Assembly (NCBI GenBank): GCA_030619715.1
Contig: JAUXAW010000002.1
Span: 1,221-65,220 of the forward strand
From: a candidate division WWE3 bacterium
GTDB taxonomy: Bacteria > Patescibacteriota > WWE3 > JAUXAW01
Length of the DNA stretch: 64,000 nt
Direction: 5' to 3'
Both the position numbers and the translations under genes were made by a program. The notes beneath the pieces were generated by a model. That model saw only the letters and a list, made by a program, of their open reading frames with translations, was not told where the DNA came from and ran no database searches. Each line of letters opens with the position of its first letter. The stretch's first letter is position 1. Below are positions 20,266 to 40,845 of the stretch, one piece after another.

Positions 20266-20715
20266 ATGGTGAAATTGATTGCCGAAAACCGCAGGGCTTT
20301 GGCAAATTACGAGATTGAGGAGAAGTTTGAGGCGGGGATTAGATTGACCGGCGCCGAGATAAAATCGGTCCGCCAGAGGCGGATTGATTTGCGGGGAAGT
20401 TTTGTCAAGATAGTTGATGACGAACCGTACGTTTTGAATCTTAAAATTCACCGGTATACACCTTCCGGCGACCGCGAATACGATCCCAAAAGAACTCGTA
20501 AGCTTTTGTTACAAAAACATCAGATTAAGCGACTGATAGGTAAAGACTCACAGAAAGGAGTAATGATTGTACCCTTAAGACTTTATCTTAAGAATAATGT
20601 GGCCAAGTTGGAGATTGGGGTGGGCAGGAAGAGAAAAAAATATGATAAGCGTGAGGTGCTTAAAGAACGTGACGACCGGCGGCGAGTAGAGCGAGAGACC
20701 CAAGAGAGACTATGA
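20266..20715 (+). CDS. smpB: SsrA-binding protein SmpB
   Basis: ENRRALANYEIEEKFEAGIRLTGAEIKSVR... is the canonical SmpB N-terminus. 149 aa. Confidence 0.9.
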   Translation: MVKLIAENRRALANYEIEEKFEAGIRLTGAEIKSVRQRRIDLRGSFVKIVDDEPYVLNLKIHRYTPSGDREYDPKRTRKLLLQKHQIKRLIGKDSQKGVMIVPLRLYLKNNVAKLEIGVGRKRKKYDKREVLKERDDRRRVERETQERL

Positions 20716-21482
20716 GCCCCGAACCCTCTTTACTATCACATAAACGCTCCCGAAACACTTTACTAACGGGAATAAAAACCATTGTGGAAAAGTGGGGGAG
20801 AAGTGTTTTAGATTTTATTTTTCCTCTACGCTGCCCCGGCTGCAACAAGAAAGGTACCTGGTTTTGCGACGACTGTTTGGCCAAGCTGACTTTTCTTGAA
20901 ACCTTTCCCTGCGCCGTTTGTGGCAAAGAGGCGATCAAGGGAATAACCCATCCCCGCTGTCAAACAAAGTATACGTTGGATCGGCTGATCAGTATCTACC
21001 AATATGAGGGCCCGATCAAGAAGGCGATTGCCTGGCTGAAATATAAAGATGTGACCGGTCTGGCCAAAATCCTTGCCAATCTAATGGTCGAGGAGGTACG
21101 AGAGTTAGGAATCGAGTTTGGTTCGAAAACGATCATTATCCCCGTCCCCCTGCATTGGAAAAGAGCTTGGGATCGGGGCTTTAATCAGGCCGAACTTTTG
21201 GCCCGACCTTTTGGTAAGAGCTTGGGTCTTGAGGTCCGAGACGACCTTTTGCGAAGGACGCGGCACACCGAGCCGCAGATTAGGTTAAAACACGATCAGC
21301 GGCAAAAAAACGTTTCCGGAGCGTTTGCCGTTCCGGATTCAAAGAGAAACGAGGTCAAGAACAAGGATTTTCTCCTCGTTGACGATGTCTGTACCACCGG
21401 GGCCACCCTTGATGCCTGCGCCAACGCCCTCAAGCGCGCCGGCGCTCGCTATGTTTGGGCTCTTACTTTAGCGGGGGATTGA
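20712..21482 (+). CDS. comF: ComF-family protein (double zinc ribbon plus phosphoribosyltransferase domain)
   Basis: CPGCNK...CDDC...CAVCGK...HPRC zinc ribbons. C-terminal PRTase motif FLLVDDVCTTGATL. ATGA overlap with smpB. Confidence 0.85.
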   Translation: MSPEPSLLSHKRSRNTLLTGIKTIVEKWGRSVLDFIFPLRCPGCNKKGTWFCDDCLAKLTFLETFPCAVCGKEAIKGITHPRCQTKYTLDRLISIYQYEGPIKKAIAWLKYKDVTGLAKILANLMVEEVRELGIEFGSKTIIIPVPLHWKRAWDRGFNQAELLARPFGKSLGLEVRDDLLRRTRHTEPQIRLKHDQRQKNVSGAFAVPDSKRNEVKNKDFLLVDDVCTTGATLDACANALKRAGARYVWALTLAGD

Positions 21483-27551: not shown

Positions 27552-28619
<1,068 letters not shown>

Positions 28620-28776
28620 CTCTCCCCAAGTTAGGAAGTTAGGTGATGCCTATTCTGTTTCTGTGGTTTTGCGTCAAATACTTCAGCGCTATGTAGTGCT
28701 AAATAATTCGTCAATTTTTACACCGAATGTTGCCGGTTGCTTTTGGTTCCTTTTTATGATATAAAAGAAAATGCGT

Positions 28777-28819
28777 TCCGCGGTAGCTCTCCGCCAGCTG
28801 GCGGAGGTAGAGCGAAGGC
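28777..28819 (+). pseudogene. partial duplicate of the tRNA-Asn 5' half (acceptor-D-anticodon stem) carrying a 16-nt palindromic insertion in the D-loop
   Basis: tccgcggtagctc[tccgccagctggcgga]ggtagagcgaaggc(atgtt) versus the genuine tRNA-Asn tccggggtagctc[aat]ggtagagcgaaggc(ctgtt) at 29062. The GIY-YIG start codon sits where the anticodon loop would be. Confidence 0.6.
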
Positions 28820-29071
28820 ATGTTCGAAGTGTACGCTATTTACAATAGAAAGAATGACAAGATATACATAGGGCAAACAAGGGATTTGGAGGCGAGGTTA
28901 AAGGCTCATAATGATGGGAGATTTACTAACTCTTATACGGCGAGGTTTGACGGCGGGTGGGAATTAATTTATAGTGAGCCAAGCCGGACCCACGCCCAAG
29001 CTTTAAGGAGGGAGAAGCAATTGAAGAGTTATAGAGGTAGGGAGTTTATTAAGCAACACATTCCGGGGTAG
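28820..29071 (+). CDS. GIY-YIG nuclease family protein (small stand-alone URI domain)
   Basis: MFEVYAIYNRKNDKIYIGQTRDLEARLKAHN (GIY...YIG...R..H/N). 83 aa. Stop codon overlaps the first bases of tRNA-Asn. Confidence 0.85.
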   Translation: MFEVYAIYNRKNDKIYIGQTRDLEARLKAHNDGRFTNSYTARFDGGWELIYSEPSRTHAQALRREKQLKSYRGREFIKQHIPG

Positions 29072-29136
29072 CTCAATGGTAGAGCGAAGGCCTGTTAAGC
29101 CTGCGGTTGAGAGTTCGAATCTCTCCCCCGGAGCCA
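29062..29136 (+). tRNA. tRNA-Asn (anticodon GTT)
   Basis: Acceptor tccgggg/ccccgga, loop ctGTTaa, T-arm gagagttcgaatctctc, CCA encoded. Short D-loop. Confidence 0.85.
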
Positions 29137-29190
29137 AACCCTTTAGAATGGCGTGATTACGCCATTTTCTTGTTTTGTGATAAGATTGAT
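29130..29190 (+). repeat. junction site F0: tRNA-Asn 3' end GGAGCCA core plus aaccctttaRaatggcgtRRYtacgccRttttcttgttttgtg arm; also at 33289-33345 and 34475-34540
   Basis: Three copies read directly. Arm contains hairpin ggcgt..acgcc plus T-run (terminator-like). Followed within 15-25 nt by a gene start in two of the three copies. Confidence 0.6.
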
Positions 29191-29193
29191 GCA

Positions 29194-29946
29194 ATGGGGT
29201 TCAAGCTATTGATCTTCGATCTTGACGGAACGGCTGTGCCTAACAAACCGGACGGGCTGCCTTCTGAGGCGGTTATCGGTGCGGTGGAGAAGGCAAAGAA
29301 ATTTGTTGAGGTCAGTGTAGCAACAGGTAGAGCTATTACCATGGCCCGACCGATCCTTAAAAAGTTCAACCTAACCTCTCCGTGCATCATCTCTGGTGGA
29401 ACACAAATCATCAATCCACAAACAGAAGAAACATTGTGGGAGAAAAGATTATCAAAGCATCAGGTTGAGAGAATAATCCAAGTTTGCTTTCCGTACCATT
29501 ACGAAATTCTGTTTGCGGAAGAGACCAACGGTTCTTCAGCAAAAGAAAAAAACGTCGTGGGGTCAGAGAGAATCGTGTATATCATGAACGTTGAAGAGGG
29601 GGATGATCATAAGATGCTAAGGGAATTAGATGAGCTAGATGAGGTGGCAGCCTACGGAGTTAAATCTTGGACTAAGGGTTGTACCGATATCCATGCTACT
29701 CACAAACAAGCCACAAAGAAGTACGCCATGAAGACTTTGTTAGAAATGATTGGGGTGGACAAAGAGGCAGTACTTTGTGTGGGTGATAGTACTAACGATT
29801 TACCGCTCTTTGAAACATCCGGCTTTAAGGTGGCAATGGGGAACGCGTCCGAAGAGATCAAGCAGCTTGCCGATTACATCGCCCCTTCAGTAGAAGAAGA
29901 TGGGATGGTGGAGGTTATAAATAAACTCATCGTCTCGAAGCGGTAG
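29194..29946 (+). CDS. HAD-superfamily hydrolase (Cof-like)
   Basis: MGFKLLIFDLDGTAV (DxDGT motif I). Later VGDSTNDLPLF (motif IV). Confidence 0.8.
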   Translation: MGFKLLIFDLDGTAVPNKPDGLPSEAVIGAVEKAKKFVEVSVATGRAITMARPILKKFNLTSPCIISGGTQIINPQTEETLWEKRLSKHQVERIIQVCFPYHYEILFAEETNGSSAKEKNVVGSERIVYIMNVEEGDDHKMLRELDELDEVAAYGVKSWTKGCTDIHATHKQATKKYAMKTLLEMIGVDKEAVLCVGDSTNDLPLFETSGFKVAMGNASEEIKQLADYIAPSVEEDGMVEVINKLIVSKR

Positions 29947-30122
29947 CTAGTTCCAGCTCCATCCCCTACACAAATCTTGCCAAAGCGGGTACCGATGTTC
30001 TATCTTTGACAAAATAGGTTCGAAGTTCCGCCTCGGTTTCGCCCACGGCGGGACGGATTGTACGACCGGGGCCACCCCCTTCGCCAAGGCTTCGGAGGGC
30101 AAGCCCCTCCCGTCACATATTG

Positions 30123-30150
30123 CCACCCCCACCCCAAAATCTGATACAAT
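30123..30150 (+). promoter_or_regulatory. cassette promoter module Mp (ccacccccaccccaaaatcTGataCAAT), partial copy
   Basis: Extended -10-like TGATACAAT lies 10 nt before the SDR start. Same module at 32407-32470 and 39402-39465. Confidence 0.5.
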
Positions 30151-30159
30151 AATCGTACG

Positions 30160-30900
30160 ATGGCAAAAACAGCTTTAGTTACTGGTGTTTCTCGAGGAAT
30201 TGGTCGAGCAATTGCTAAAAAATTAGCGAGTGAAGGCTATTTTATTCATGGAACTTACAATACTGGCAAAAAGGAAGCTGAGGAGTTAAAAAAGGAAATT
30301 AAAAATATCGAGATTTACCAAGCTAACTTCAGACATAGAAAACAAACCCAGCAGTTGGTAGAAAAACTAAAGGAGATTAAATTTGACGCTTTGGTTAACA
30401 ATGCAGGGGTTTTCCAACTTGAAGATTTTGATAATTATGATTTTGAGATTTGGGATAGTACCTTTGAGATAAATCTTAATGCTATTTTAGTTATTTGTTT
30501 AGGATTGAAAGATAACATTAGAAAGGGTGGGGCGATTGTTAACATTACAAGCACAGATGGGATGACCGGCTCCTTTGGGGGAATGGCATATTCAGCGAGT
30601 AAAGCAGCATTGATAAACCTGACAAAGAGTTTGGGTAACAATTTTGGACCAAAAGGTATTAGGGTTAACGCAATAGCTCCGGGGTGGGTCAATACCGATA
30701 TGGACACTGAGGTTGTAGGTGATGCTCCCGGCCTAACTCCCTTAGGAAGAAATGCTAAGCCGGAAGAAATTGCGAACGTTGTAAGTTTTTTGCTTTCCGA
30801 TGGGGCTAGTTTTGCCAACGGCGCCACTTTCGTTATTGACGGAGGTTATACCAACGTTGACCCCATTATGAAGAAGGAGGCGGAATTGGAGAAAAAATGA
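30160..30900 (+). CDS. short-chain dehydrogenase/reductase (SDR)
   Basis: TGVSRGIGRAIA (TGxxxGIG). YSASKAA (YxxxK). 246 aa. Confidence 0.85.
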   Translation: MAKTALVTGVSRGIGRAIAKKLASEGYFIHGTYNTGKKEAEELKKEIKNIEIYQANFRHRKQTQQLVEKLKEIKFDALVNNAGVFQLEDFDNYDFEIWDSTFEINLNAILVICLGLKDNIRKGGAIVNITSTDGMTGSFGGMAYSASKAALINLTKSLGNNFGPKGIRVNAIAPGWVNTDMDTEVVGDAPGLTPLGRNAKPEEIANVVSFLLSDGASFANGATFVIDGGYTNVDPIMKKEAELEKK

Positions 30901-31865
30901 AGATTACTGTTTTGTGCCCCAAATTAGAATTTACCAAAGCTCAACAGGAAAGATTAGCGAAGCTCGGTGAGGTTGTTTATACCGACAGCAGGCAAGAGTA
31001 TCCAACGGAAGAACTTATTAAATTAGCCAAAGGCTCCGAGATTTTAGGTGCAGACCCGGACAATTTAGGCGGCTTTGAGAAAGCTAAGCCAGAATTGACC
31101 AAACTAATGGAAAGCCTACCTAAGCTTCAGGGAGTGGCTCTAGCTTCAAGCTCATTTGAATGGATTGATTTAGCTTATTGTCGAAAAAGGAGAGTCGTAG
31201 TAACGAGTGTTCCCCACTACTCAACGGAGTCAGTTGCTGAACACGCTTTAGGACTAATGATTTGTTTAGCGAAAAACATTATTATCAATGATCGAAAATT
31301 TTGGTCAGGCGAGGAGAGTAAGTTTGGTTCGGGCCCTGGTTTTGAGTTGAAGGGAAAAACGCTGGGAGTGATTGTTCTAGGGAACATTTGAAGTCGAATA
31401 GCTGAACTGGGTCAAGCAATAGGTATGAGGGTTATCGCGTATAATCGGACCCCAAAAAGACAGAAGGGAGTTGAGATGAAATCTCTAGATAAAGTTTTGT
31501 CAGAATCTGATGTGCTTTCAGTTAACCTTGCCTGTAACAAAGAAACCTATCGCTTTATTTCAGAACAACAGATTAGAAAAATGAAAAAAGGAGTGGTTAT
31601 TGTTAATCTAGTCGGTCCTGTTACACCAGATAGAGAAGTGGTTGACAAAAAAGCCATGGCCAGAGCTCTTGGGGCGGGTATAGTAGCGGCCTATGCTTAT
31701 GAGGCCGAGGATCTGACAAATAATCCGCTGTCTAAGATTGAGAATGCGATTGGTCTAAAAGGTTTTGCGTGGTACACAAAAGACGCTTTAGAACGGGCAA
31801 AAGAAATTTGGACTGACAGCATTATTTCGATTGCCAAAGGAAGTCCCATCAACGCAGTAAGCTAG
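30897..31865 (+). pseudogene. D-isomer-specific 2-hydroxyacid dehydrogenase interrupted by a single in-frame TGA (31389-31391) at the first Gly of the NAD-binding GxGxxG motif
   Basis: ORFs 30897-31391 and 31425-31865 are in the same frame. Read-through gives ...GKTLGVIVLGNI[TGA]SRIAELGQAIGMRVIAYN..., i.e. G-N-I-[G]-S-R-I. The paralog at 35521-36420 has IVGKGSIGTKIA. Confidence 0.6.
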
Positions 31866-31873
31866 GCTGTAGT

Positions 31874-31910
31874 CATACAGGCGTTCCGAACATCGTTTGC
31901 GATTCGGAAG
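31874..31910 (+). repeat. junction site C (degenerate): catacaggcgttccgaacatcgtttgcgattcggaag
   Basis: Aligns with site A at 32319-32356 (catacaggcgttccagacatcatttgcgatgcggagcca). Confidence 0.45.
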
Positions 31911-32038
31911 TCTTATTCGCTACCGCAGATGAGATGATTGTAGAAAGCGCAAGGTAATTATTTTAGTTTGCGCTATTTGTAAGCTTGATTTTTAAATGTG
32001 TTATTGTTATTAAAGTAATGAGAAGGAGGTGATAAATA

Positions 32039-32155
32039 GTGGCAAAAACAAAAACTTCTACCTACGGTAAAAAGAAGCAGAAAATTGTACCGGTTCGCCG
32101 TTACAAAAGAGGTGGTAAGTGGGTTAGAGGGCATAGACGCTCTACACCAAATTAA
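32039..32155 (+). CDS. candidate 38-aa highly basic protein (VAKTKTSTYGKKKQKIVPVRRYKRGGKWVRGHRRSTPN)
   Basis: GTG start 9 nt downstream of a strong SD (agaaggaggtg). Below the ORF-track cutoff. Lies in a cassette junction region. Confidence 0.35.
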   Translation: MAKTKTSTYGKKKQKIVPVRRYKRGGKWVRGHRRSTPN

Positions 32156-32273
32156 TAATAAATGCTTATTTTTGAAAAAGACATGGAGATTTTATGCAAT
32201 ATAAAGATTTTAAAATTGTGAAGTGGACTAATGGATTTCAGTTAGCTCCAGGGAGCTGAGGCGGTCTTCTATT

Positions 32274-32360
32274 GGAACTGGATCCAAATTTGGAAATCTG
32301 ATATAGTCTTCCGTGGATATACAGGCGTTCCAGACATCATTTGCGATGCGGAGCCATCCT
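32274..32360 (+). repeat. junction site A: X-type left arm (gaactggatccaaatttggaaatctgatatagtc...) + gatgcGGAGCCA core + tccttcttcgcc right arm
   Basis: Left arm is about 85% identical to 37666-37731. Core at 32350-32356. Confidence 0.6.
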
Positions 32361-32378
32361 TCTTCGCCAAAGATTTGT

Positions 32379-32404
32379 GCGGCCTTCGGGCCGCTTTGTT
32401 TTTG
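32379..32404 (+). terminator. cassette terminator module Mt (gcggccttcgggccgc + tttgttttt)
   Basis: Perfect 6-bp GC stem, 4-nt loop, T-run. Near-identical copies at 36476-36502, 37758-37786, 41425-41451. Confidence 0.7.
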
Positions 32405-32406
32405 CT

Positions 32407-32470
32407 GCGGAGACCCCACCCCCACCCCAAAATCTGATACAATGACCACACGCGGAGGCGAGGAAAAATG
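32407..32470 (+). promoter_or_regulatory. cassette promoter/5'UTR/start module Mp (gcggagaccccacccccaccccaaaatcTGataCAATgaccacacgcggaggcgaggaaaaATG)
   Basis: 62/64 identical to 39402-39465, which supplies the ALDH start codon. Here the module ATG opens only a 13-codon uORF (MSDEKYLKLGIKT) before the nitrilase ATG. Confidence 0.55.
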
Positions 32471-32512
32471 AGTGATGAAAAATATCTTAAACTTGGCATC
32501 AAGACTTGAAAG

Positions 32513-33265
32513 ATGGATAAATTTAGAGTAGCAGCGATTAATGCTGACCCCGCTAAGCCGACAGAGAGTTATCTTAGGAAGGTAAAAAGCCTAGATTGCA
32601 AATTAATTTGCTTCCCTGCTTACTATCGGAGAAATGAAAATTTGCCTGAAATGACTCGACTGGCTAAGGCTTATAAAACCTACATTCTGGCCGGTATTGA
32701 TGAGGTAAATAGCCGGAGCGGTTATAAAAGTGTCTTTCTTTTCTTCCCAGATGGGAAGAAAAGGAGACTTCATCGAAAAACAATTCTTGCCAATTTCGAG
32801 AAAAAAGATGGGTTTAGAGAAGGGAAAAGTATCAAAGTTTTTGCGTCGCCTTTTGGTAAAATCGGTGTTTCCATTTGTCTTGAGAGTTGGTATCCAGAAA
32901 CCCCGCGGATCCTGGCTTTAAAAGGAGCAGAGATCATTTTTGCCCCTGCCGGATTTGGAATGAAGAAGGGCCTGAAGTTTGACTTTTATGACAATTGGCG
33001 GGATATGCTCAAAATTAGGGCGATCGAGAATCTAGCCTACGTCATTTGTTGCACCAATGCGGTTGGTGAGAAGCCATTGGGGGTAATTATTAATCCAGAG
33101 GGCCGGATTTTGGCCGAAAGGATGGGCGAGGGGATTGTTACTACCACAATTAGCCTTAAGTGGGTAAGAAAAATGAAGACAGGCGATTATGAGGAGAGAA
33201 TCGCCGCCAAGATTCGTTTGGAGAAGAGACAACCTGGGTTGTATAGAGATCTAATTAGGAAGTAG
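32513..33265 (+). CDS. carbon-nitrogen hydrolase (nitrilase superfamily)
   Basis: E-K-C triad context: ...RKTIL..FEK... and GVSICLESWYPE (catalytic Cys in the C-[EW] motif). 250 aa. Confidence 0.75.
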   Translation: MDKFRVAAINADPAKPTESYLRKVKSLDCKLICFPAYYRRNENLPEMTRLAKAYKTYILAGIDEVNSRSGYKSVFLFFPDGKKRRLHRKTILANFEKKDGFREGKSIKVFASPFGKIGVSICLESWYPETPRILALKGAEIIFAPAGFGMKKGLKFDFYDNWRDMLKIRAIENLAYVICCTNAVGEKPLGVIINPEGRILAERMGEGIVTTTISLKWVRKMKTGDYEERIAAKIRLEKRQPGLYRDLIRK

Positions 33266-33288
33266 CTCTCAACTAATAATTTCAGGAT

Positions 33289-33345
33289 TGGAGAGCCAAA
33301 CCCTTTAAAACGGCGTAACTACGCCGTTTTCTTGTTTTGTGGTAA
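33289..33345 (+). repeat. junction site F1: ggaGAGCCA core + tRNA-Asn-downstream-type right arm
   Basis: gagccaaaccctttaaaacggcgtaactacgccgttttcttgttttgtggtaaaattggtct precedes the MBL gene start. Confidence 0.6.
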
Positions 33346-33354
33346 AATTGGTCT

Positions 33355-33939
33355 ATGGCAAAAGTTAAAGTTCTGATCGAGGGTTACGCAAAAGAAATCA
33401 AGGGCGGGTGGTTGGCTAGTTCAACCACGACTCTCATTCGGGATCGGGGTTTAAACATCGTCGTCGATCCGGGTAAGAACAGGTCACTTCTACTCCAGAA
33501 ATTCAAAGAAGAAAACCTCAGACCCGAAGACACCGACTTTGTCTTAGTGACACACACCCACCTCGACCACAGTTATCTACTAGGTATTTTTCCTAACGCC
33601 AGGGCCTTAGATGATGAGGTCGTTTACGATCAGGACAAAGAAGGCGAGCATGGCGGAACCATTCCCGGAACGGCTATTAAAATTATCTCTACTCCCGGCC
33701 ACGACCAGTTTCACAGCTCGCTCGTCGTTCCGACCGAAAAGGGAACTGTGGTTGTTGCTGGCGATGTCTTTTGGTGGGCGGACAACGAGGAGCAAAAGAC
33801 AGACGAAACGAGTTTATTAGAACGCAAAGACCCATTCGTCAAAGACGAGAAGGCTCTGCTTGAGAGTCGTAAAGAGGTTTTGAAAATCGCCGATTGGATT
33901 ATTCCAGGACACGGGAAGATGTTTAAGGTGGAAAAATGA
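33355..33939 (+). CDS. MBL-fold metallo-hydrolase
   Basis: VTHTHLDH (HxHxDH motif). Later GHDQFH, HG. 194 aa. Confidence 0.8.
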   Translation: MAKVKVLIEGYAKEIKGGWLASSTTTLIRDRGLNIVVDPGKNRSLLLQKFKEENLRPEDTDFVLVTHTHLDHSYLLGIFPNARALDDEVVYDQDKEGEHGGTIPGTAIKIISTPGHDQFHSSLVVPTEKGTVVVAGDVFWWADNEEQKTDETSLLERKDPFVKDEKALLESRKEVLKIADWIIPGHGKMFKVEK

Positions 33940-34415
33940 AATTAACAGCTAAACAAATCGAGCTCTTGAAAGAACTAATGATTAACTCTGCAAAGAAGGG
34001 AAATCTTGCCAATTCTGCTATGGTCCTGGAGAACGGCAAGCTGGTAGCTTCGGCCGAGAGTCTGGTTGTTTCAAATCACGATGCGACCGCCCATTCAGAG
34101 AGGATGTTGGTTGAGGAAGTATGCAAAAGGAAAAAGGAAAACTATACCCCGGGTTTAACCATGGTCACAGTTGCTGAGCCTTGCCTGATGTGTATGAGTG
34201 CCTGTGCCTGGGCCGGTTACAAAGAGGTTGCCTATATCATTCCAGCCGAGAAGTACATAGATAAGATTCCGTGGATGGCCGAGACCAAGGGACTCGACAA
34301 ACAGAAAATAGCCAACTCTTTTAGTGAGCCAATTAAGCTAACACACCTGAATCAATACGAAGATGAGTTTAGCGAGATATTTGAACAGGAAATGAAAGGG
34401 CTGTTAGAAGGCTAG
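33936..34415 (+). CDS. CMP/dCMP-type zinc deaminase (nucleoside/tRNA-adenosine deaminase-like)
   Basis: HSERMLVEE (H[AC]E motif). EPCLMCMSAC (PCxxC motif). ATGA overlap with the upstream gene. Confidence 0.7.
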   Translation: MKLTAKQIELLKELMINSAKKGNLANSAMVLENGKLVASAESLVVSNHDATAHSERMLVEEVCKRKKENYTPGLTMVTVAEPCLMCMSACAWAGYKEVAYIIPAEKYIDKIPWMAETKGLDKQKIANSFSEPIKLTHLNQYEDEFSEIFEQEMKGLLEG

Positions 34416-34450
34416 CATCGGCACTACCGCCGAACAAATCTCCTGAAAGT

Positions 34451-34540
34451 AGGTTCCGACGTGTTCAACCACGTGGAGCCAAACCCTTTAAAATGGCGTA
34501 ACTACGCCATTTTCTTGTTTTGTGGTAGAATTGGTCCTGT
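34451..34540 (+). repeat. junction site F2: Y-type left arm (aggttccgacgtgttcaaccacgt) + GGAGCCA core + tRNA-Asn-downstream-type right arm
   Basis: Left arm matches site E (41385-41399). Right arm matches F0/F1. Core at 34475-34481. Confidence 0.6.
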
Positions 34541-34709
34541 AGGTAAAAAACTAGTGGTAAGGTTGATTGTTGCAAGCGATTACGACCTTGACCTGGCATT
34601 ACTTAAAGTTCCTAAGGGAGTAGAGTTGGAATTTTATAAATTATAAAGTAACCATAATTCTATGGTTTATTCGTCAAAATTGTTTCTTAACAGATAAGAA
34701 TAATCAAAA

Positions 34710-35351
34710 ATGGCATTCAAAAGAAACATGAACCAGGAGGAAATGATTAGTTTTATTGATAATGAATTATTTCCTCAAATTAAGAAAGAGATTAAAAATT
34801 GGATTTATCCAAAAAAACAGACTGGTGGATATTTTGCAGTAACCAGGCAAATATTTTGCATGGTTGATTTCTTGGGTGCGGTGTATGCGGGATACCCTTT
34901 AGTGGAAAAGAGAAATGACGAAAGAGGAGAGAAAATTGCTACATCTAAAAAAGCCATAAAGTTCATTACTACGTTTTTTGAGCCGGAAGAAACCTATCAG
35001 CAGGATATTGTAACTAAACTATATAAAATGTACCGCCATGGACTTGTGCATCTCTACCAACCCAAGATTCTAAAATTGGGCTCTAGAAAAAGACTGAAGT
35101 GGTTTTTTTACAGGGGCGCAAGACACAAAGAAGAAATAAAAATAGGGGAAATAGTATTCAAAGATATTAATCATCTTCAGATATACATCGATGAAAATAA
35201 CAGAAAGCACAGCTATCTTGTTATTAGTATTGATTGTCTTTATAAGGACTTTGAAGAGGCAATCAAGCGATATAGGTACAAGTTAGCAAATACAAAGTGT
35301 TTACAAAGAAACTGGCGTACGGCTGTTAATGCTATCTGTAAGCCCCGATGA
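34710..35351 (+). CDS. hypothetical protein in AT-rich (about 37% GC) segment; contains Rx4H (RHGLVH) HEPN-like motif
   Basis: 213-aa ORF. Composition is distinct from neighbours. The motif is the only hint of function. Confidence 0.5.
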   Translation: MAFKRNMNQEEMISFIDNELFPQIKKEIKNWIYPKKQTGGYFAVTRQIFCMVDFLGAVYAGYPLVEKRNDERGEKIATSKKAIKFITTFFEPEETYQQDIVTKLYKMYRHGLVHLYQPKILKLGSRKRLKWFFYRGARHKEEIKIGEIVFKDINHLQIYIDENNRKHSYLVISIDCLYKDFEEAIKRYRYKLANTKCLQRNWRTAVNAICKPR

Positions 35352-35520
35352 AAGTACTAAAGCAAGAGGATGGTTGGACTATTTGAGCTTCTTTTGCTCT
35401 TTGTGTAAAACCTTAACTTGAGTTAAAATATAGGAAAATGAAGATGAGGAGTAATATGAATAAATTTATCAAAAATTTACTAGAGTAATTGCATCCAGTA
35501 TAATTGATAGAAAGGACAAT

Positions 35521-36420
35521 ATGAAAAAGGTTGTAGTATTAGGTGCTAAACCAAACGATGACCAGAAGACGCGATTAGAGGCGTTGGGTGAAGTAAAGTA
35601 TCTTCCAAGTCCGTCTAACTCCGATGAGTTAATGAAGCAGGCTGGAGGAGCTGATGTTCTTTACAGTGATGGTGCATTTTTACTTGAGAGCTTGCCAAAG
35701 TTGAAAAATGTATTTGTAACATATCCATATGTTGAACTTGGAGTTTTTAATTCGGAAGAGTTGAAGAAAAATGGTGTGTTGGTTGCAAACTCTCAAGGAG
35801 GCAATAGACCTTCAATTATTGAGTGGGTAATGTTTATGGTTTTGTCTTTGTTTAGGAAATTCACCCCTATGGTTAGAGCCACAGAAAATTTTCCTGTGGA
35901 GTTACAACAAAGTTTGAGTGGAAAGAAAGTACTGATAGTTGGGAAGGGTAGCATTGGGACTAAGATTGCAATACCTTGTGAGGCTTTTGGAATGGAAGTT
36001 TCATTTTTCGAGCGTGGAGACAATTTACACGCAAAATCTGCAGATGCTGACTTGGTGATAAATTCGCTTAACTGCAACTCTACCAGCAAGAACCTACTTG
36101 ATGAGAAATTCTTCATGTCGCTTAAGAAGGGAGCATACTACATTACATTTGTTAGGCCATATACCTATGATTTGGATGGATTACTAAAATCAATTGACAA
36201 TGGGGTGGTGGCAGGAGCGGCAATTGACTGCGACCCAGAGAAATTTGGGGATACTACAAACGAGTTTTATAAAAAAGCCCTAAGCGATCCAAAAGTGCTA
36301 GTAACCCCCCACATAGCCTTTTCTACTAAACAGGCAATAGTAAATGGTGGAGAAATAGCCGTAAAAAATATTGAGGCTTTCGTTGCAGGTAAACCCCAGA
36401 ATGTGCTAACTAAGAAGTAA
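35521..36420 (+). CDS. D-isomer-specific 2-hydroxyacid dehydrogenase family protein
   Basis: VGKGSIGTKIA NAD-binding motif. Catalytic region ...TPHIAFSTKQA... AT-rich. Paralog of the interrupted gene at 30897-31865. Confidence 0.8.
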   Translation: MKKVVVLGAKPNDDQKTRLEALGEVKYLPSPSNSDELMKQAGGADVLYSDGAFLLESLPKLKNVFVTYPYVELGVFNSEELKKNGVLVANSQGGNRPSIIEWVMFMVLSLFRKFTPMVRATENFPVELQQSLSGKKVLIVGKGSIGTKIAIPCEAFGMEVSFFERGDNLHAKSADADLVINSLNCNSTSKNLLDEKFFMSLKKGAYYITFVRPYTYDLDGLLKSIDNGVVAGAAIDCDPEKFGDTTNEFYKKALSDPKVLVTPHIAFSTKQAIVNGGEIAVKNIEAFVAGKPQNVLTKK

Positions 36421-36437
36421 GCCAGTTCTAACTTCTT

Positions 36438-36502
36438 CCACTACGGGGAGCCATCCTCCTTCGCTAAAGATTTATGCGGCCTGCGGGCCGCTTTGTTTTT
36501 GT
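36438..36502 (+). repeat. junction site D: ccactacggGGAGCCA core + tcctccttcgctaaagattta right arm + Mt terminator
   Basis: Left part resembles site E (ttactacgtggagtca). Right arm resembles site A. Core at 36447-36453. Terminator gcggcctgcgggccgctttgtttttg at 36476-36502. Confidence 0.55.
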
Positions 36503-36625
36503 TCTCACCGACTTGACAAAACTATGAGTTTACGATAGAGTTACCAGTGTAGTACTCAAAACCCTACAAAAGGGGGTATTACAACAAATAAGGGTGGCGA
36601 CCTAACCGCCAGAAAGGGGTGTGAC

Positions 36626-37567
36626 GTGGTAAAGAGATCTTTGTTCACGAGTTTTCCCATTTTAGCAGCGCTTCAGGAGGCCGACAAGTTCATAGCAGGC
36701 GTCCTCTGGGAGGAGAAGCAGGTGAGACCTGAAGGACCTCTCCAGTGGGTTGCCAGCAATGACATGCAGGCCGCCCTGATCGGTCCGCGCATTTGGGGCC
36801 AGACGTTGGCCGCACTGGCTGGCTTTGCAGAAGGGGAAATGTCTTCCATTGCCGACTGGGACGTGGAGGTCATCAACGCCTTCCTACGTGGAGAGGAGTT
36901 TGAGATTCAACTGCGTCCTTGGCCCAAGGAGGATCGGCTCACCTTCGGTATTGCGGCCATCATCAAGCTGCTACGCGAATGGCGCGTCCGGGGAGAGGAG
37001 GGTTACAAGGTGGTCGATTGGCGCAAGGCCTTCCGTCTAGGGGCTCCTGCAGCGCAAGGTGGGGTGGAGTTCTACCGTGCCTCTGGCGAAGTCGTGGTTC
37101 GCATCCCGACCAAGGTTCGTGGCGACTACGTCTGCGTCACTAAGGCATCGGAGCCAAAGACCCACTTTGACCTGCTGTTCTTCTGCATGGATACCCGGAG
37201 TGCGATGGAGCCGACCGACGAGTTCACCGGAGCCATCTTGCCCAACTGGACGTTCCAGGAAGAGGTTGACGTTTCGGATCTCATCAACCTTCGGACGGAA
37301 GACGCCGTTGGCCAGCCATGGTGGCTCGCTCAGGCGCTGATGGAAGGCAAGTCCGCCTTCTGCGCGGAGGGAATTTCCTTCAAGGCTGCCTTCGCCGCCG
37401 CCGTCATGCTCGGTGGGTCTCGGCCGAAGGAACCCGGCCCACGTGACCACGTTGTAGATTACGATTTGGTCATGTGGATCGATCGCGAAGACGTCCCTGT
37501 TCCTTTGGGTGCCGTTTATGTAGCGACCGACGAATTCTCACAGACTGACGTTCGCCTGGAGTGGTAG
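36626..37567 (+). CDS. hypothetical protein, GC-rich (about 60%)
   Basis: 313-aa ORF, GTG start after aaaggggtg. No recognisable motif. Composition suggests foreign origin. Confidence 0.5.
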   Translation: MVKRSLFTSFPILAALQEADKFIAGVLWEEKQVRPEGPLQWVASNDMQAALIGPRIWGQTLAALAGFAEGEMSSIADWDVEVINAFLRGEEFEIQLRPWPKEDRLTFGIAAIIKLLREWRVRGEEGYKVVDWRKAFRLGAPAAQGGVEFYRASGEVVVRIPTKVRGDYVCVTKASEPKTHFDLLFFCMDTRSAMEPTDEFTGAILPNWTFQEEVDVSDLINLRTEDAVGQPWWLAQALMEGKSAFCAEGISFKAAFAAAVMLGGSRPKEPGPRDHVVDYDLVMWIDREDVPVPLGAVYVATDEFSQTDVRLEW

Positions 37568-37583
37568 TCTTGAGGAGTGATTA

Positions 37584-37640
37584 GGGCTAGTATCCACACA
37601 CAAGTTTGACTTGTGGATACTAGCCTGTTTTTGTTTTGAG
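37584..37640 (+). terminator. long palindromic terminator (ctagtatccacacacaag ttt gac ttgtggatactag + T-run)
   Basis: About 17-bp imperfect stem followed by cctgtttttgttttg. Confidence 0.6.
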
Positions 37641-37665
37641 AATTAAGCTGTTAGGGGAACTGGAT

Positions 37666-37738
37666 CCAAACTCGGAAATCTGATATATTCCTCGGTAGCC
37701 ATACAAGTGCTCCGAACGTCGTCCACGATGCGGAGCCA
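37666..37738 (+). repeat. junction site B: X-type left arm + cgatgcGGAGCCA core + gttttgagtttt right arm
   Basis: Left arm matches site A. Right arm matches site E. Core at 37732-37738. Followed by Mt terminator at 37758-37786. Confidence 0.6.
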
Positions 37739-37824
37739 GTTTTGAGTTTTAATAGAAGTGGCCTGCGGGCCGTTTTGTTTTTTCCCCAGAAATTTTTCTT
37801 TACCCTTGTGTTAAAATCTAGACC

Positions 37825-39342
37825 ATGAATGAGGACGAGAAGTACGAGGGAGAAGTTGACTTCGAAGGTGAGAAAGAGGGAATAGGAAAGAAAGTTAGGA
37901 AATTGCCGCCGGCTCCGGTTGCCGCCGCCGTTGTTGTCCTTGTCTTGGCGGGGGTCCTCGGCGGCTATTTTTTATACCAGCGGTATTTTGGGAGAACCGC
38001 TCCGGAGGAAGTTTCTGCACCCGCTACCCAAACCAAAGTTCCCAAATTAGATCCCCAGAAAGAAAAAACCCATCTTTCCAGAGTGGCCGATACCCAAGGT
38101 GCCTACTTTGCCCGAGCCTTCGATCTGTTTTGGGGCGATGTGGAAACCCAAAGAGGGAAATTTGATTGGTCTTTGACCGACGAACAAATAAGATGGCTTA
38201 ACGAGGAGGAGATTTACCCTTTGGTTATTGTCAAACCCTTTGCTCTTTGGGACCAAGAAAGTTGCCACCCGGAGGAAAGATACGAAGCCGAATTTGACCC
38301 CCGGAAAGGCTACCGAATCAAGGTCGGTAAACCTTGCGACCTAATAGCTTTCGGTCAGTTTTTGGAAAAAGCGGTCGAGCGCTACGATGGTGATGGGATC
38401 GAAGATATGCCCGGTCTGACGATTCCGATTAAATACTGGGAGATTATGAACGAGCCGACGATGCAAGGTGGCGTCACCGGCGGGATGGGCGAGGAATTGA
38501 AATTCTTTGTCGGCACCTCTAAGGATTATCTAGAAATTCTCAAAACTTCCTATCAAGCGATCAAAAAAGCCGATCCGGAGGCAAAAGTTCTACACGCGGG
38601 AATGGCGGGGATGGACCGAAACTTTCGAGATTTCTGGCGGCCGGTTTTTGCTCAAGGCGGTGGGCAATATTTTGACATCGCCAATATCCATACCATTTCG
38701 ACCGATCAAAGGAGAGAGGATTTGTTTGTGATCAGGTTCAAAAGATTTTTGCAAGAATTTGGTCTGCAAGGCAAGCCGATCTGGATCACCGAGGTTCAGT
38801 TTGGCCGTCTGGCGGAAAAACCTGAAGATTTAGAAAGTTTTGAGATTTTGGTGACCAAAGCCTCGGTTTTTGCCCTGGCCCAAGGGACGGATAAACTAAT
38901 TTACATCTCAAATTGGACGGACTTTTGGCCCTCCTTCGCCAACCCACTTCGCCAAGGCTACGAGGGTCAAGAGGCTTCGGAGGGTAAGGAAGAAATGAAA
39001 AAGGAGAAGAAATTTAAAGTTAGCCCTGAGGTTTTAGCAAGTTCCACTCACCAAGTTTACCTCAATTTGGTCGATAAGGTTAATCAGTTTGACCGGATAG
39101 AAAAGATTAAGGAGGAGTACATCGAAAATCAGGGCGACCACGATGGCGCCACCTCCAACATTGGGCAGTATAAGTTTGTTTCCGGCGATAAATCGGTTTA
39201 TGTTCTTTGGGGTCAAGCCGAACTTCCCGCGGAAATTTCCGGCCAAGTTAGAGTGACGGATATTTATGGTCAGACAGGGACGATGGACGCCTCTTTAATC
39301 AATCTTTCCGCCGCGCCAATTTTTGTCGAGCCCAGCCGTTGA
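37825..39342 (+). CDS. membrane-anchored clan GH-A glycoside hydrolase (GH5-like)
   Basis: N-terminal TM. WEIMNEP (acid/base NEP). IWITEVQFG (nucleophile TE) spaced as in GH5/GH-A (beta/alpha)8 enzymes. Confidence 0.6.
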   Translation: MNEDEKYEGEVDFEGEKEGIGKKVRKLPPAPVAAAVVVLVLAGVLGGYFLYQRYFGRTAPEEVSAPATQTKVPKLDPQKEKTHLSRVADTQGAYFARAFDLFWGDVETQRGKFDWSLTDEQIRWLNEEEIYPLVIVKPFALWDQESCHPEERYEAEFDPRKGYRIKVGKPCDLIAFGQFLEKAVERYDGDGIEDMPGLTIPIKYWEIMNEPTMQGGVTGGMGEELKFFVGTSKDYLEILKTSYQAIKKADPEAKVLHAGMAGMDRNFRDFWRPVFAQGGGQYFDIANIHTISTDQRREDLFVIRFKRFLQEFGLQGKPIWITEVQFGRLAEKPEDLESFEILVTKASVFALAQGTDKLIYISNWTDFWPSFANPLRQGYEGQEASEGKEEMKKEKKFKVSPEVLASSTHQVYLNLVDKVNQFDRIEKIKEEYIENQGDHDGATSNIGQYKFVSGDKSVYVLWGQAELPAEISGQVRVTDIYGQTGTMDASLINLSAAPIFVEPSR

Positions 39343-39401
39343 TGATTCCGGCCGTTGTGTGTCCAACAGAAATTTATTCACTAGGCCGCTTTGTTTTTGT
39401 T

Positions 39402-39465
39402 GCGGAGACCCCACCCCCACCCCAAAATCTGATACAATGACCGTACGCGGAGGCGAGGAAAAATG
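39402..39465 (+). promoter_or_regulatory. cassette promoter/5'UTR/start module Mp, supplies the ALDH start codon
   Basis: 62/64 identical to 32407-32470. Preceded by a degenerate Mt remnant (ggccgctttgtttttg). Confidence 0.55.
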
Positions 39466-40845
39466 AAATTGAAATCGATCAACCCACACGACCAGTCAGT
39501 AGTTGGGGAATTGAAAATCTCTACCCAGCAAGATGTTAAGAGGGCAGTGAAGAAAGCGAAAAAGGCCTTTGGCCCGTGGCAAGCTTTGTCGGTGGCTGAA
39601 AGAGTTGAATATATTAAAAGATTTAGGACAAAGGTAGCCAAGAACAAGGAGAAGATTGCCAAGCTCACGACACTTGAGATGGGTAAGCCTCTGCAGCAAT
39701 CACTTGACGATGTTAGCTGGGAACTTGAGTTTCTCGATTACTACATTAAAAAGGGACCCGAATACCTAGCTGACGAGACTGTCTACAAGAAAGGGAAAGA
39801 ACATTTTCGAGTAAGTTACGAACCTTATGGCGTTTGTGCCTGTATCGCCCCCTGGAATTTTCCGCTTTCGATGGCCAACTCCGGTGTTATTCCCGCTTTG
39901 ATTGCGGGAAACACGGTCATTCTTAAGCCTTCCGAATACACCAGTCTAAGCCAGAAGATAATCATCGATTTGTTACAGAAATCTAGAATACCCGATGGAG
40001 TCGCCAATCTCTTAATCGGTGGTGGTGAGGTTGGGAAAATGCTCATTGACGAGCCGATCGATCTGGCTTGGTTCACTGGTAGCACTAAGGTTGGTCAGGA
40101 GATTTACAGAAAATGTGGCAAGAAGTTTATCAAAGCGTTGCTAGAGATGGGTGGAAGCAGTCCCGGTATCATTTTCGCCGACGCCAATCTTGATTTAACG
40201 ATGGATAATCTCTACTGGGCCAGGTTTCTAAACTGTGGTCAGGTTTGCACCGCTATCAAGAGACTATTTGTTGAGATGCCAGTTTATAGAAAAGTGGTCA
40301 ATCTTTTCGTAGATAAGCTTAAAACGGTAAAAGTTGGTAACCCAATGGATAAGAAAACCGATATTGGCCCGCTCGTTTCCCAAAAACAACTTAAGTTATT
40401 AAAAGAGCAGGTGGCGGACGCAATTTCTAAAGGAGCAAAAGTAGAGATCGGTGGCAAACAGCCCGAAGGCAAAGAGTTCGAGAAGGGTAACTATTTTGAA
40501 CCCACGGTTCTCACGGACATTACCACAGATATGAGGGTATTTACCGAAGAAACATTTGGTCCTGTACTGCCAATTATCCCTTTTAAGACGGAGGAAGAAG
40601 CAATAAGACTCGCTAACAGAACGGAGTATGGTTTAAGTGCTGAAATTTACACCACCGACCTTGAGAAAGGCGAACGGGTCGCTAAACAAATAGAAGCGGG
40701 TACGGTCGCCATCAACACCGACGATTTCTTCAAGCCAGAATGTCCCTTCGGTGGATACAAGAAAAGTGGGATGGGTAGAGAGTATGGTGAAATTGGAATG
40801 AAGGAGTTCTCACAAGTAAAATTGATCGCTGTTGTTAGACCCTAA
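39463..40845 (+). CDS. NAD(P)-dependent aldehyde dehydrogenase
   Basis: LEMGGSSP (ELGGKSP-type motif). FLNCGQVCTA (catalytic Cys). 460 aa. Confidence 0.9.
   Translation: MKLKSINPHDQSVVGELKISTQQDVKRAVKKAKKAFGPWQALSVAERVEYIKRFRTKVAKNKEKIAKLTTLEMGKPLQQSLDDVSWELEFLDYYIKKGPEYLADETVYKKGKEHFRVSYEPYGVCACIAPWNFPLSMANSGVIPALIAGNTVILKPSEYTSLSQKIIIDLLQKSRIPDGVANLLIGGGEVGKMLIDEPIDLAWFTGSTKVGQEIYRKCGKKFIKALLEMGGSSPGIIFADANLDLTMDNLYWARFLNCGQVCTAIKRLFVEMPVYRKVVNLFVDKLKTVKVGNPMDKKTDIGPLVSQKQLKLLKEQVADAISKGAKVEIGGKQPEGKEFEKGNYFEPTVLTDITTDMRVFTEETFGPVLPIIPFKTEEEAIRLANRTEYGLSAEIYTTDLEKGERVAKQIEAGTVAINTDDFFKPECPFGGYKKSGMGREYGEIGMKEFSQVKLIAVVRP

Follow-up and report, generated by a model that had tools for sequence, protein, structure and literature searches.

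The 2-HADH gene and its reading frame

The DNA analyzed here, a stretch of 64 kb referred to as the window, carries a D-2-hydroxyacid-dehydrogenase-like (2-HADH) gene on the plus strand at 30897–31865, which consists of 322 codons with one internal stop and was read as a pseudogene. Two ORFs, one at 30897–31391 (164 aa) and the other at 31425–31865 (146 aa), lie in the same frame. The first-pass annotation had described them as a single frame broken only by a TGA, and translation of the whole interval agreed with this description, yielding 322 codons in which the TGA at 31389–31391 is the sole stop. The uninterrupted frame of approximately 310–330 codons that is found in the superfamily is absent, the in-frame TGA falling at codon 165 of 322.

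Pfam analysis was performed on the translation joined across the stop, with a Gly placed there. It identified both the catalytic domain (2-Hacid_dh, PF00389; E value, 1.9e-19; 70.1 bits, cut-off 24.6) and the NAD-binding domain (2-Hacid_dh_C, PF02826; E value, 8e-32; 110.5 bits, cut-off 25.1), each above the Pfam gathering score. The gene aligned end to end with intact homologs of 314–324 aa, the best of which shared 81% identity. Its ATG start, with GGAGG upstream, and its final stop lined up with those of the homologs, and no frameshift was present. The G + C content of the gene is 42%, within a stretch of 36–46% in a window of approximately 48%, which is consistent with an earlier remark that the cassette is AT-rich.

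The downstream remnant ORF (31425–31865, plus strand) has no Shine–Dalgarno sequence before its ATG at 31425. The sequence GGGAG precedes the next ATG, at 31476, and the 129-aa version that starts there exists as an entry in the protein collection.

An intact short-chain dehydrogenase (SDR) gene at 30160–30900 (plus strand; Pfam adh_short_C2; E value, 3.7e-54) precedes the pseudogene, and its stop overlaps the pseudogene start in the sequence ATGA (30897–30900). The SDR is 92% identical to its ortholog P0125. An intact distant paralog of the 2-HADH gene with 29% identity is located on the plus strand at 35521–36420. It has the canonical TPH catalytic motif, and the GKGSIG motif reported for it in the first-pass annotation is indeed present. 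An independent Logan contig was 100% identical to the paralog over 35521–36420.

Lesions in the NAD-binding loop

Among 5.8 billion clustered proteins, 1,388 homologs were identified. Nearly all of the best 120 of these were full length (312–324 aa), the top match being the one with 81% identity. The motif G160-L-G162-N-I-G165-S-R of the homologs reads V-L-G-N-I-stop-S-R in the window. The in-frame TGA (31389–31391, plus strand) occupies codon 165 and differs from GGA by a G-to-T change at base 31389. This codon corresponds to the third Gly of the GxGxxG motif, because the homologs and the solved structures PDB 3kb6 (GTGRIG) and PDB 6p2i (GIGQIG) align in this manner; the earlier placement of the TGA on the first Gly was thus in error. 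The first Gly is also lost, which had been overlooked. Codon 160 is GTT (Val) at 31374–31376 on the plus strand (G160V), with base 31375 changed from G to T relative to GGT.

All 118 full-length homologs have Gly at both positions, 160 and 165. No more than 16 columns are invariant among these 118 sequences, and G160 and G165 are the only two of the 16 at which the window gene differs. Across all columns conserved at 95% or more, just three deviations were observed, including N104S, where AGT (Ser) at 31206–31208 (plus strand) lies in the VTNVP motif at a position occupied by Asn in 98% of homologs. An intact GxGxxG loop was not recovered, as V160-L-G-N-I-stop165 stands against G-x-G-x-I-G in every one of the 118 homologs. 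A premature stop relative to intact orthologs, together with damage at columns conserved at 100% (G160V) and 98% (N104S), is the pattern of a nonsense pseudogene.

The closest homologs, with 78–81% amino acid identity, are intact and have GGN at codon 165. Codon alignment with the three closest genes (L003/P0001, L002/P0002, and L001/P0004; 73–79% nucleotide identity to the window gene) gave GGT, GGG, and GGT at codon 160 and GGG, GGT, and GGC at codon 165, respectively, and no in-frame TGA was found in the genes of L001, L002, and L003. From these codons, both lesions are explained as single G-to-T changes, at 31375 and 31389, which lie 14 nt apart in the same six-residue motif. Codon 165 in 38 intact genomic homologs was GGT in 13, GGA in 10, GGC in nine, and GGG in six, and never TGA.

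Gene conversion from the paralog at 35521 was considered as a source of the lesions and rejected, as a comparison by eye of the motifs GKGSIG and VLGNI-stop revealed no common stretch.

Genetic code of the host

UGA is read as Gly under genetic code 25 in Gracilibacteria and Absconditabacteria (SR1), and the phylum Patescibacteria includes these code-25 lineages. The host of the window falls in the same phylum, as its DnaG has relatives at 75–80% identity and the named matches are "Patescibacteria group bacterium." The first-pass annotation had offered two explanations, a fresh nonsense mutation or transfer of the gene from a lineage in which UGA means Gly. Under the second, the gene would come from, or be decoded as in, a code-25 lineage, and UGA-165 would supply the expected Gly. 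The TGA does lie exactly on an invariant Gly, the G + C content of the block is below that of the rest of the window, and a broken ortholog, L045, likewise carries in-frame TGAs at two positions where Gly is conserved.

Against this explanation, TGA terminates genes of the host and of the block itself. The 60 non-overlapping ORFs of at least 90 codons in the 64 kb end in TGA (21), TAG (21), and TAA (18). The claim that core genes use TGA as a stop held for smpB (20266–20715), which ends in TGA at full profile length, and for both smpB and comF (20712–21482) the TGA coincides with the last positions of their NCBIfam profiles. The gene at 37825–39342 terminates with TGA TGA. Within the low-G + C block, TGA ends the SDR gene, the MBL-fold gene (33355–33939), and the gene at 34710–35351, and that of the SDR is a true stop because the 92% identity to P0125 runs to the last residue. 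When TGA was treated as sense, the 2-HADH gene was the only place in the 64 kb where a mid-gene TGA separated long coding stretches; the gene has a single TGA, and the window did not show the numerous in-frame UGAs that code 25 would place at conserved Gly residues of its genes.

The homologs point in the same direction. A check of the nearest homologs and their code, proposed in the first-pass annotation, found intact genes with GGN, and TGA serves as a stop on the homolog contigs checked. Approximately 55 close loci were located by scanning species-representative genomes, a set from which the source genome is absent. Most bear Patescibacteria names, largely of the Microgenomates type (Roizman-, Woese-, Ames-, Chisholm-, and Gottesmanbacteria), and neither Gracilibacteria nor Absconditabacteria occurred among the names of these loci. 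We take those filed as "uncultured Gammaproteobacteria/Pseudomonadales" to be mislabelled. In L045, the two TGAs are accompanied by a deletion of approximately 40 aa, and the neighbouring genes are intact under code 11, some of them ending in TGA. Moreover, recoding explains nothing of the neighbouring invariant Gly that became Val.

The position of the TGA itself carries little weight. If mutation is assumed to be uniform, GGA is the origin of 13–21% of the single-base routes to TGA in the 2-HADH gene and in the three homologs closest to it, and TGA landing on a Gly codon is no rare or meaningful coincidence. Because GGA to TGA is such a common single-step route, an in-frame TGA at a conserved Gly is not evidence of code 25, and we suggest this as a caution. 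The likeness to code-25 systems consists of a UGA where Gly is expected in a host of the same phylum; the differences are that UGA is a functional stop in both genome and block, that one UGA is involved, and that the homologs use the standard code. The first-pass annotation had named standard-code homologs and further lesions as grounds for abandoning the transfer, and since the homologs are intact with a standard code and the gene carries an extra lesion, this explanation was rejected; we regard it as barely credible.

A search for a tRNA able to read UGA had also been proposed. ARAGORN identified eight tRNAs in the 64-kb window, none of them with the anticodon UCA (0/8). A short sequence pattern representing an anticodon loop with UCA matched the window at chance level and was uninformative, which leaves ARAGORN as the relevant test. 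It is exceedingly unlikely that a suppressor tRNA encoded outside the window decodes UGA-165 as Gly or another residue. If it did, a Patescibacteria lineage outside Gracilibacteria and Absconditabacteria would be at an early, gene-limited stage of UGA reassignment, and the TGAs of L045 would represent the same phenomenon.

Programmed recoding and split genes

The frame is otherwise perfectly kept, and GGGAG stands before the ATG at 31476, both of which would fit programmed recoding (readthrough or selenocysteine insertion at UGA-165) or a functional split in which the two halves are made separately and assemble. The RNA following the UGA gives no sign of the former, as no hairpin lies downstream. 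The 72 nt at 31389–31460 folded no better than shuffled sequence (z +0.78), which argues that no SECIS-like element is present, and the homologs have Gly at this position rather than Cys or Sec. With respect to a split, no homolog divided at the same point was found in the protein search, where short matches that stop close to it appear to be partial records or fragments truncated by contig ends. Breaking the protein within the glycine-rich turn would also part beta-1 from alpha-A of the Rossmann fold. This break, the lack of a split homolog, and the missing Shine–Dalgarno sequence before the ATG at 31425 led us to reject a functional split gene. In addition, G160V constitutes a second defect under either form of this explanation, and overall we consider programmed recoding or a split very improbable.

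Accuracy of the assembly

Three independent Logan contigs from two SRA runs were 100% identical to the window over 28064–30611, 32399–33779, and 34831–36527. The comparison covered 5,626 nt of the flanks only, with 0 mismatches, indicating that the assembly is accurate there. The contigs retrieved from the same population end at 30611 and resume at 32399, and this break suggests that the 2-HADH region may be poorly covered or polymorphic.

The break leaves room for an artefact, in which the true gene would be intact (GGT and GGA) and the two T's would be consensus errors of the metagenome-assembled genome (MAG), such as G-to-T artefacts of oxidative damage where coverage is low. The two changes, each from G to T, are only 14 nt apart, and lesions so close together could stem from one complex event or from a problem with the local assembly or consensus. 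The rest of the gene is undecayed and constrained, and a sequencing error in a live gene would look the same. No second copy of the 164-aa or the 129-aa ORF was found outside the NCBI record: an exact look-up of the 164-aa ORF returned no contig, a protein search with the N-terminal ORF gave no 100%-identical partial ORF, and an exact-pattern scan of JGI metagenome contigs for near-identical strains, allowing G or T at both sites, gave nothing.

On the other hand, the identity of the flanks to independent assemblies implies a generally accurate consensus, and two independent substitution errors within 15 nt are very unlikely. The 5.8 billion clustered proteins included no intact near-identical protein, the best match being 81% identical, and orthologs are decaying in other genomes. 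The artefact stays a minor rival, since the retrieved contigs span only the flanks and no identical copy was located, and we judge it unlikely.

Decay of orthologs and proposed history of the gene

Seven of approximately 55 orthologous loci in other Patescibacteria MAGs were disrupted by nonsense codons, frameshifts, or deletions. Besides L045, with its two TGAs and deletion, these were L023 with a TAG nonsense codon, L037, L041, L050, and L051 with a frameshift each, and L066 with a frameshift and a large deletion. The 2-HADH gene appears to be dispensable, because some relatives do not have it, a divergent paralog is located 4 kb away, and its orthologs decay repeatedly.

Taken together, the 2-HADH gene is very probably a unitary nonsense pseudogene, inactivated recently in a Patescibacteria genome with the standard bacterial code. 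Of the two explanations offered in the first-pass annotation, the fresh nonsense mutation is the one supported here, with G160V as a second lesion and the rest of the gene undecayed. The mean identity to 114 outgroup homologs was 0.600 for the window gene compared with 0.583–0.607 for four intact sister sequences. The inactivation is likely to be recent, since there is no extra decay and no frameshift and both start and stop are conserved. We infer that the lesions are real mutations rather than assembly errors, that function has been lost, and that the loss is young.

In the proposed course of events, two G-to-T substitutions would have changed GGT to GTT (G160V) and GGA to TGA (G165stop). 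Ribosomes arriving from the SDR gene through the ATGA overlap would then terminate at UGA-165, releasing a fragment of 164 residues. This fragment would break off within the first beta-alpha-beta turn of the Rossmann fold, with the remainder of the NAD-binding domain missing. No ribosome-binding site serves the first ATG of the 146 codons downstream, and translation from the ATG at 31476 would give a product in which beta-1 and alpha-A of this fold are lacking. Readthrough of the stop would still leave Val in place of the first Gly, a change expected to impair binding of the dinucleotide.

This gene resembles ordinary bacterial nonsense pseudogenes in its premature stop relative to intact orthologs, its missense damage at invariant residues, its location in a variable region, its dispensability, and the parallel decay of its orthologs in other genomes. 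The only oddity is that both lesions are G-to-T changes and fall in one six-residue motif. A further young pseudogene in such an accessory block, within a reduced Patescibacteria genome, is of little importance in itself.

With the window gene included, the broken copies show five point lesions, four of which are G to T. This excess could hint at a mutation spectrum resembling that of oxidative damage.

Enzyme family and the catalytic histidine

The best solved matches of the gene are PDB 3kb6 (D-lactate dehydrogenase), PDB 6p2i ("glycerate dehydrogenase"), and PDB 1wwk (phosphoglycerate dehydrogenase). Solved 2-hydroxyacid dehydrogenases have the same two-domain architecture and length, with profile matches at E values of 1e-50 to 1e-53, whereas the window copy has V-x-G-x-x-stop in place of their GxGxxG.

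In the catalytic Arg-Glu-His triad, Gly takes the place of His in the window gene, as it does in almost all members of its close family. The Patescibacteria subfamily (P0001–P0120) has LKG-FAWYT compared with the canonical TPH-IAYYT, and one aligned homolog starts HAWYT. The window gene keeps the Arg-like position (DRE) and the Glu (E269), and its Pfam match extends to position 172 of the 178 in the profile and does not reach the TPH motif. PDB 6p2i, with TPG-SAWY, also has Gly for the catalytic His, as in the Patescibacteria subfamily; the paralog at 35521 keeps TPH. A literature search on PDB 6p2i found nothing relevant. Because Gly replaces the catalytic His, intact members of the family may differ in their chemistry from canonical dehydrogenases. 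A family that spans Patescibacteria without the canonical catalytic His and decays repeatedly is of possible interest to specialists.

The variable accessory block

The pseudogene is located in a variable accessory block at 28700–39400, the boundaries of which are approximate. The block contains a GIY-YIG gene, tRNA-Asn, a HAD hydrolase, the SDR gene, the 2-HADH pseudogene, a CN-hydrolase, the MBL-fold gene, a deaminase, and the paralog, as well as genes of unknown function. An Rfam scan of 28.5–38.5 kb identified tRNA-Asn only. Relatives with DnaG 75–80% identical keep the gene order smpB, comF ... dnaG, rpoD up to approximately 28.6 kb, after which each differs. In L084, for example, an aldehyde dehydrogenase follows rpoD and matches the window only at 39.9–40.8 kb, in inverted orientation. 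In L082, whose SDR is 92% identical, tRNA-Asn, SDR, and CN-hydrolase are present, and the 2-HADH gene is absent between SDR and CN-hydrolase.

An SDR with 60–62% identity to that of the window adjoins the 2-HADH gene in L001 (7162–7932) and L045 (2078–2815). The order in L003 is an MBL-fold fragment (2–175; 57% identical to window 33355–33939), the 2-HADH gene, and another SDR (1154–1936). Judging from these contigs (L001, L045, and L003), the same accessory genes appear to travel with the 2-HADH gene in varying order.

Repeats and duplicated segments in the block

A 37-nt sequence (CCACCCCCACCCCAAAATCTGATACAAT...) occurs at 30123–30159, before the SDR gene, and at 32416–32452, before the CN-hydrolase gene, with 89% identity between the copies. 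Because of this duplicate and the adjacency of SDR and CN-hydrolase in L082, the 2-HADH gene together with its 3′ flank looks inserted in the window, or else it was deleted in L082.

An element of approximately 60–80 nt is present in three copies (29130–29211, 33292–33373, and 34475–34556), which are 68–79% identical to the first. It opens with the last 6–7 nt of tRNA-Asn (GAGCCA), followed by a terminator-like hairpin (AATGGCGTnAnTACGCCATTTT), and carries an extended −10-like box (TGTGnTAnnAT) just upstream of a gene start. The appearance of these copies suggests that they mark the boundaries of cassettes or were left behind by repeated integration at the 3′ end of the tRNA.

A second repeat family is built on an 83-nt unit and occurs at 32274–32404, 36447–36501, and 37656–37782, with a partial copy at 31875–31908, just after the pseudogene stop. 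The unit ends in GGAGCCA and is followed by a GC hairpin terminator; it had no match in Rfam. Its minus strand can be read as a conserved peptide (WLRIANDVWNACISTEDYIRFPNLDPVP compared with WLRIVDDVRSTCMATEEYIRFPSLDPVP), and this conservation suggests that the repeats are remnants of a small gene or a gene end.

A segment of the D-arm and anticodon stem of tRNA-Asn (29078–29096) is copied at 28806–28824 with 18 of 19 nt identical (GGTAGAGCGAAGGCnTGTT). The copy overlaps the start of the small GIY-YIG gene (28820–29071), which lies directly upstream of tRNA-Asn, and it may be a trace of the insertion of the GIY-YIG gene beside the tRNA.

Finally, the 73 nt at 39394–39466 share 96% identity with the beginning of Logan contig L089 (window 32399–32471). 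By this similarity, the intergenic repeat appears to recur there, at the distal edge of the variable block.
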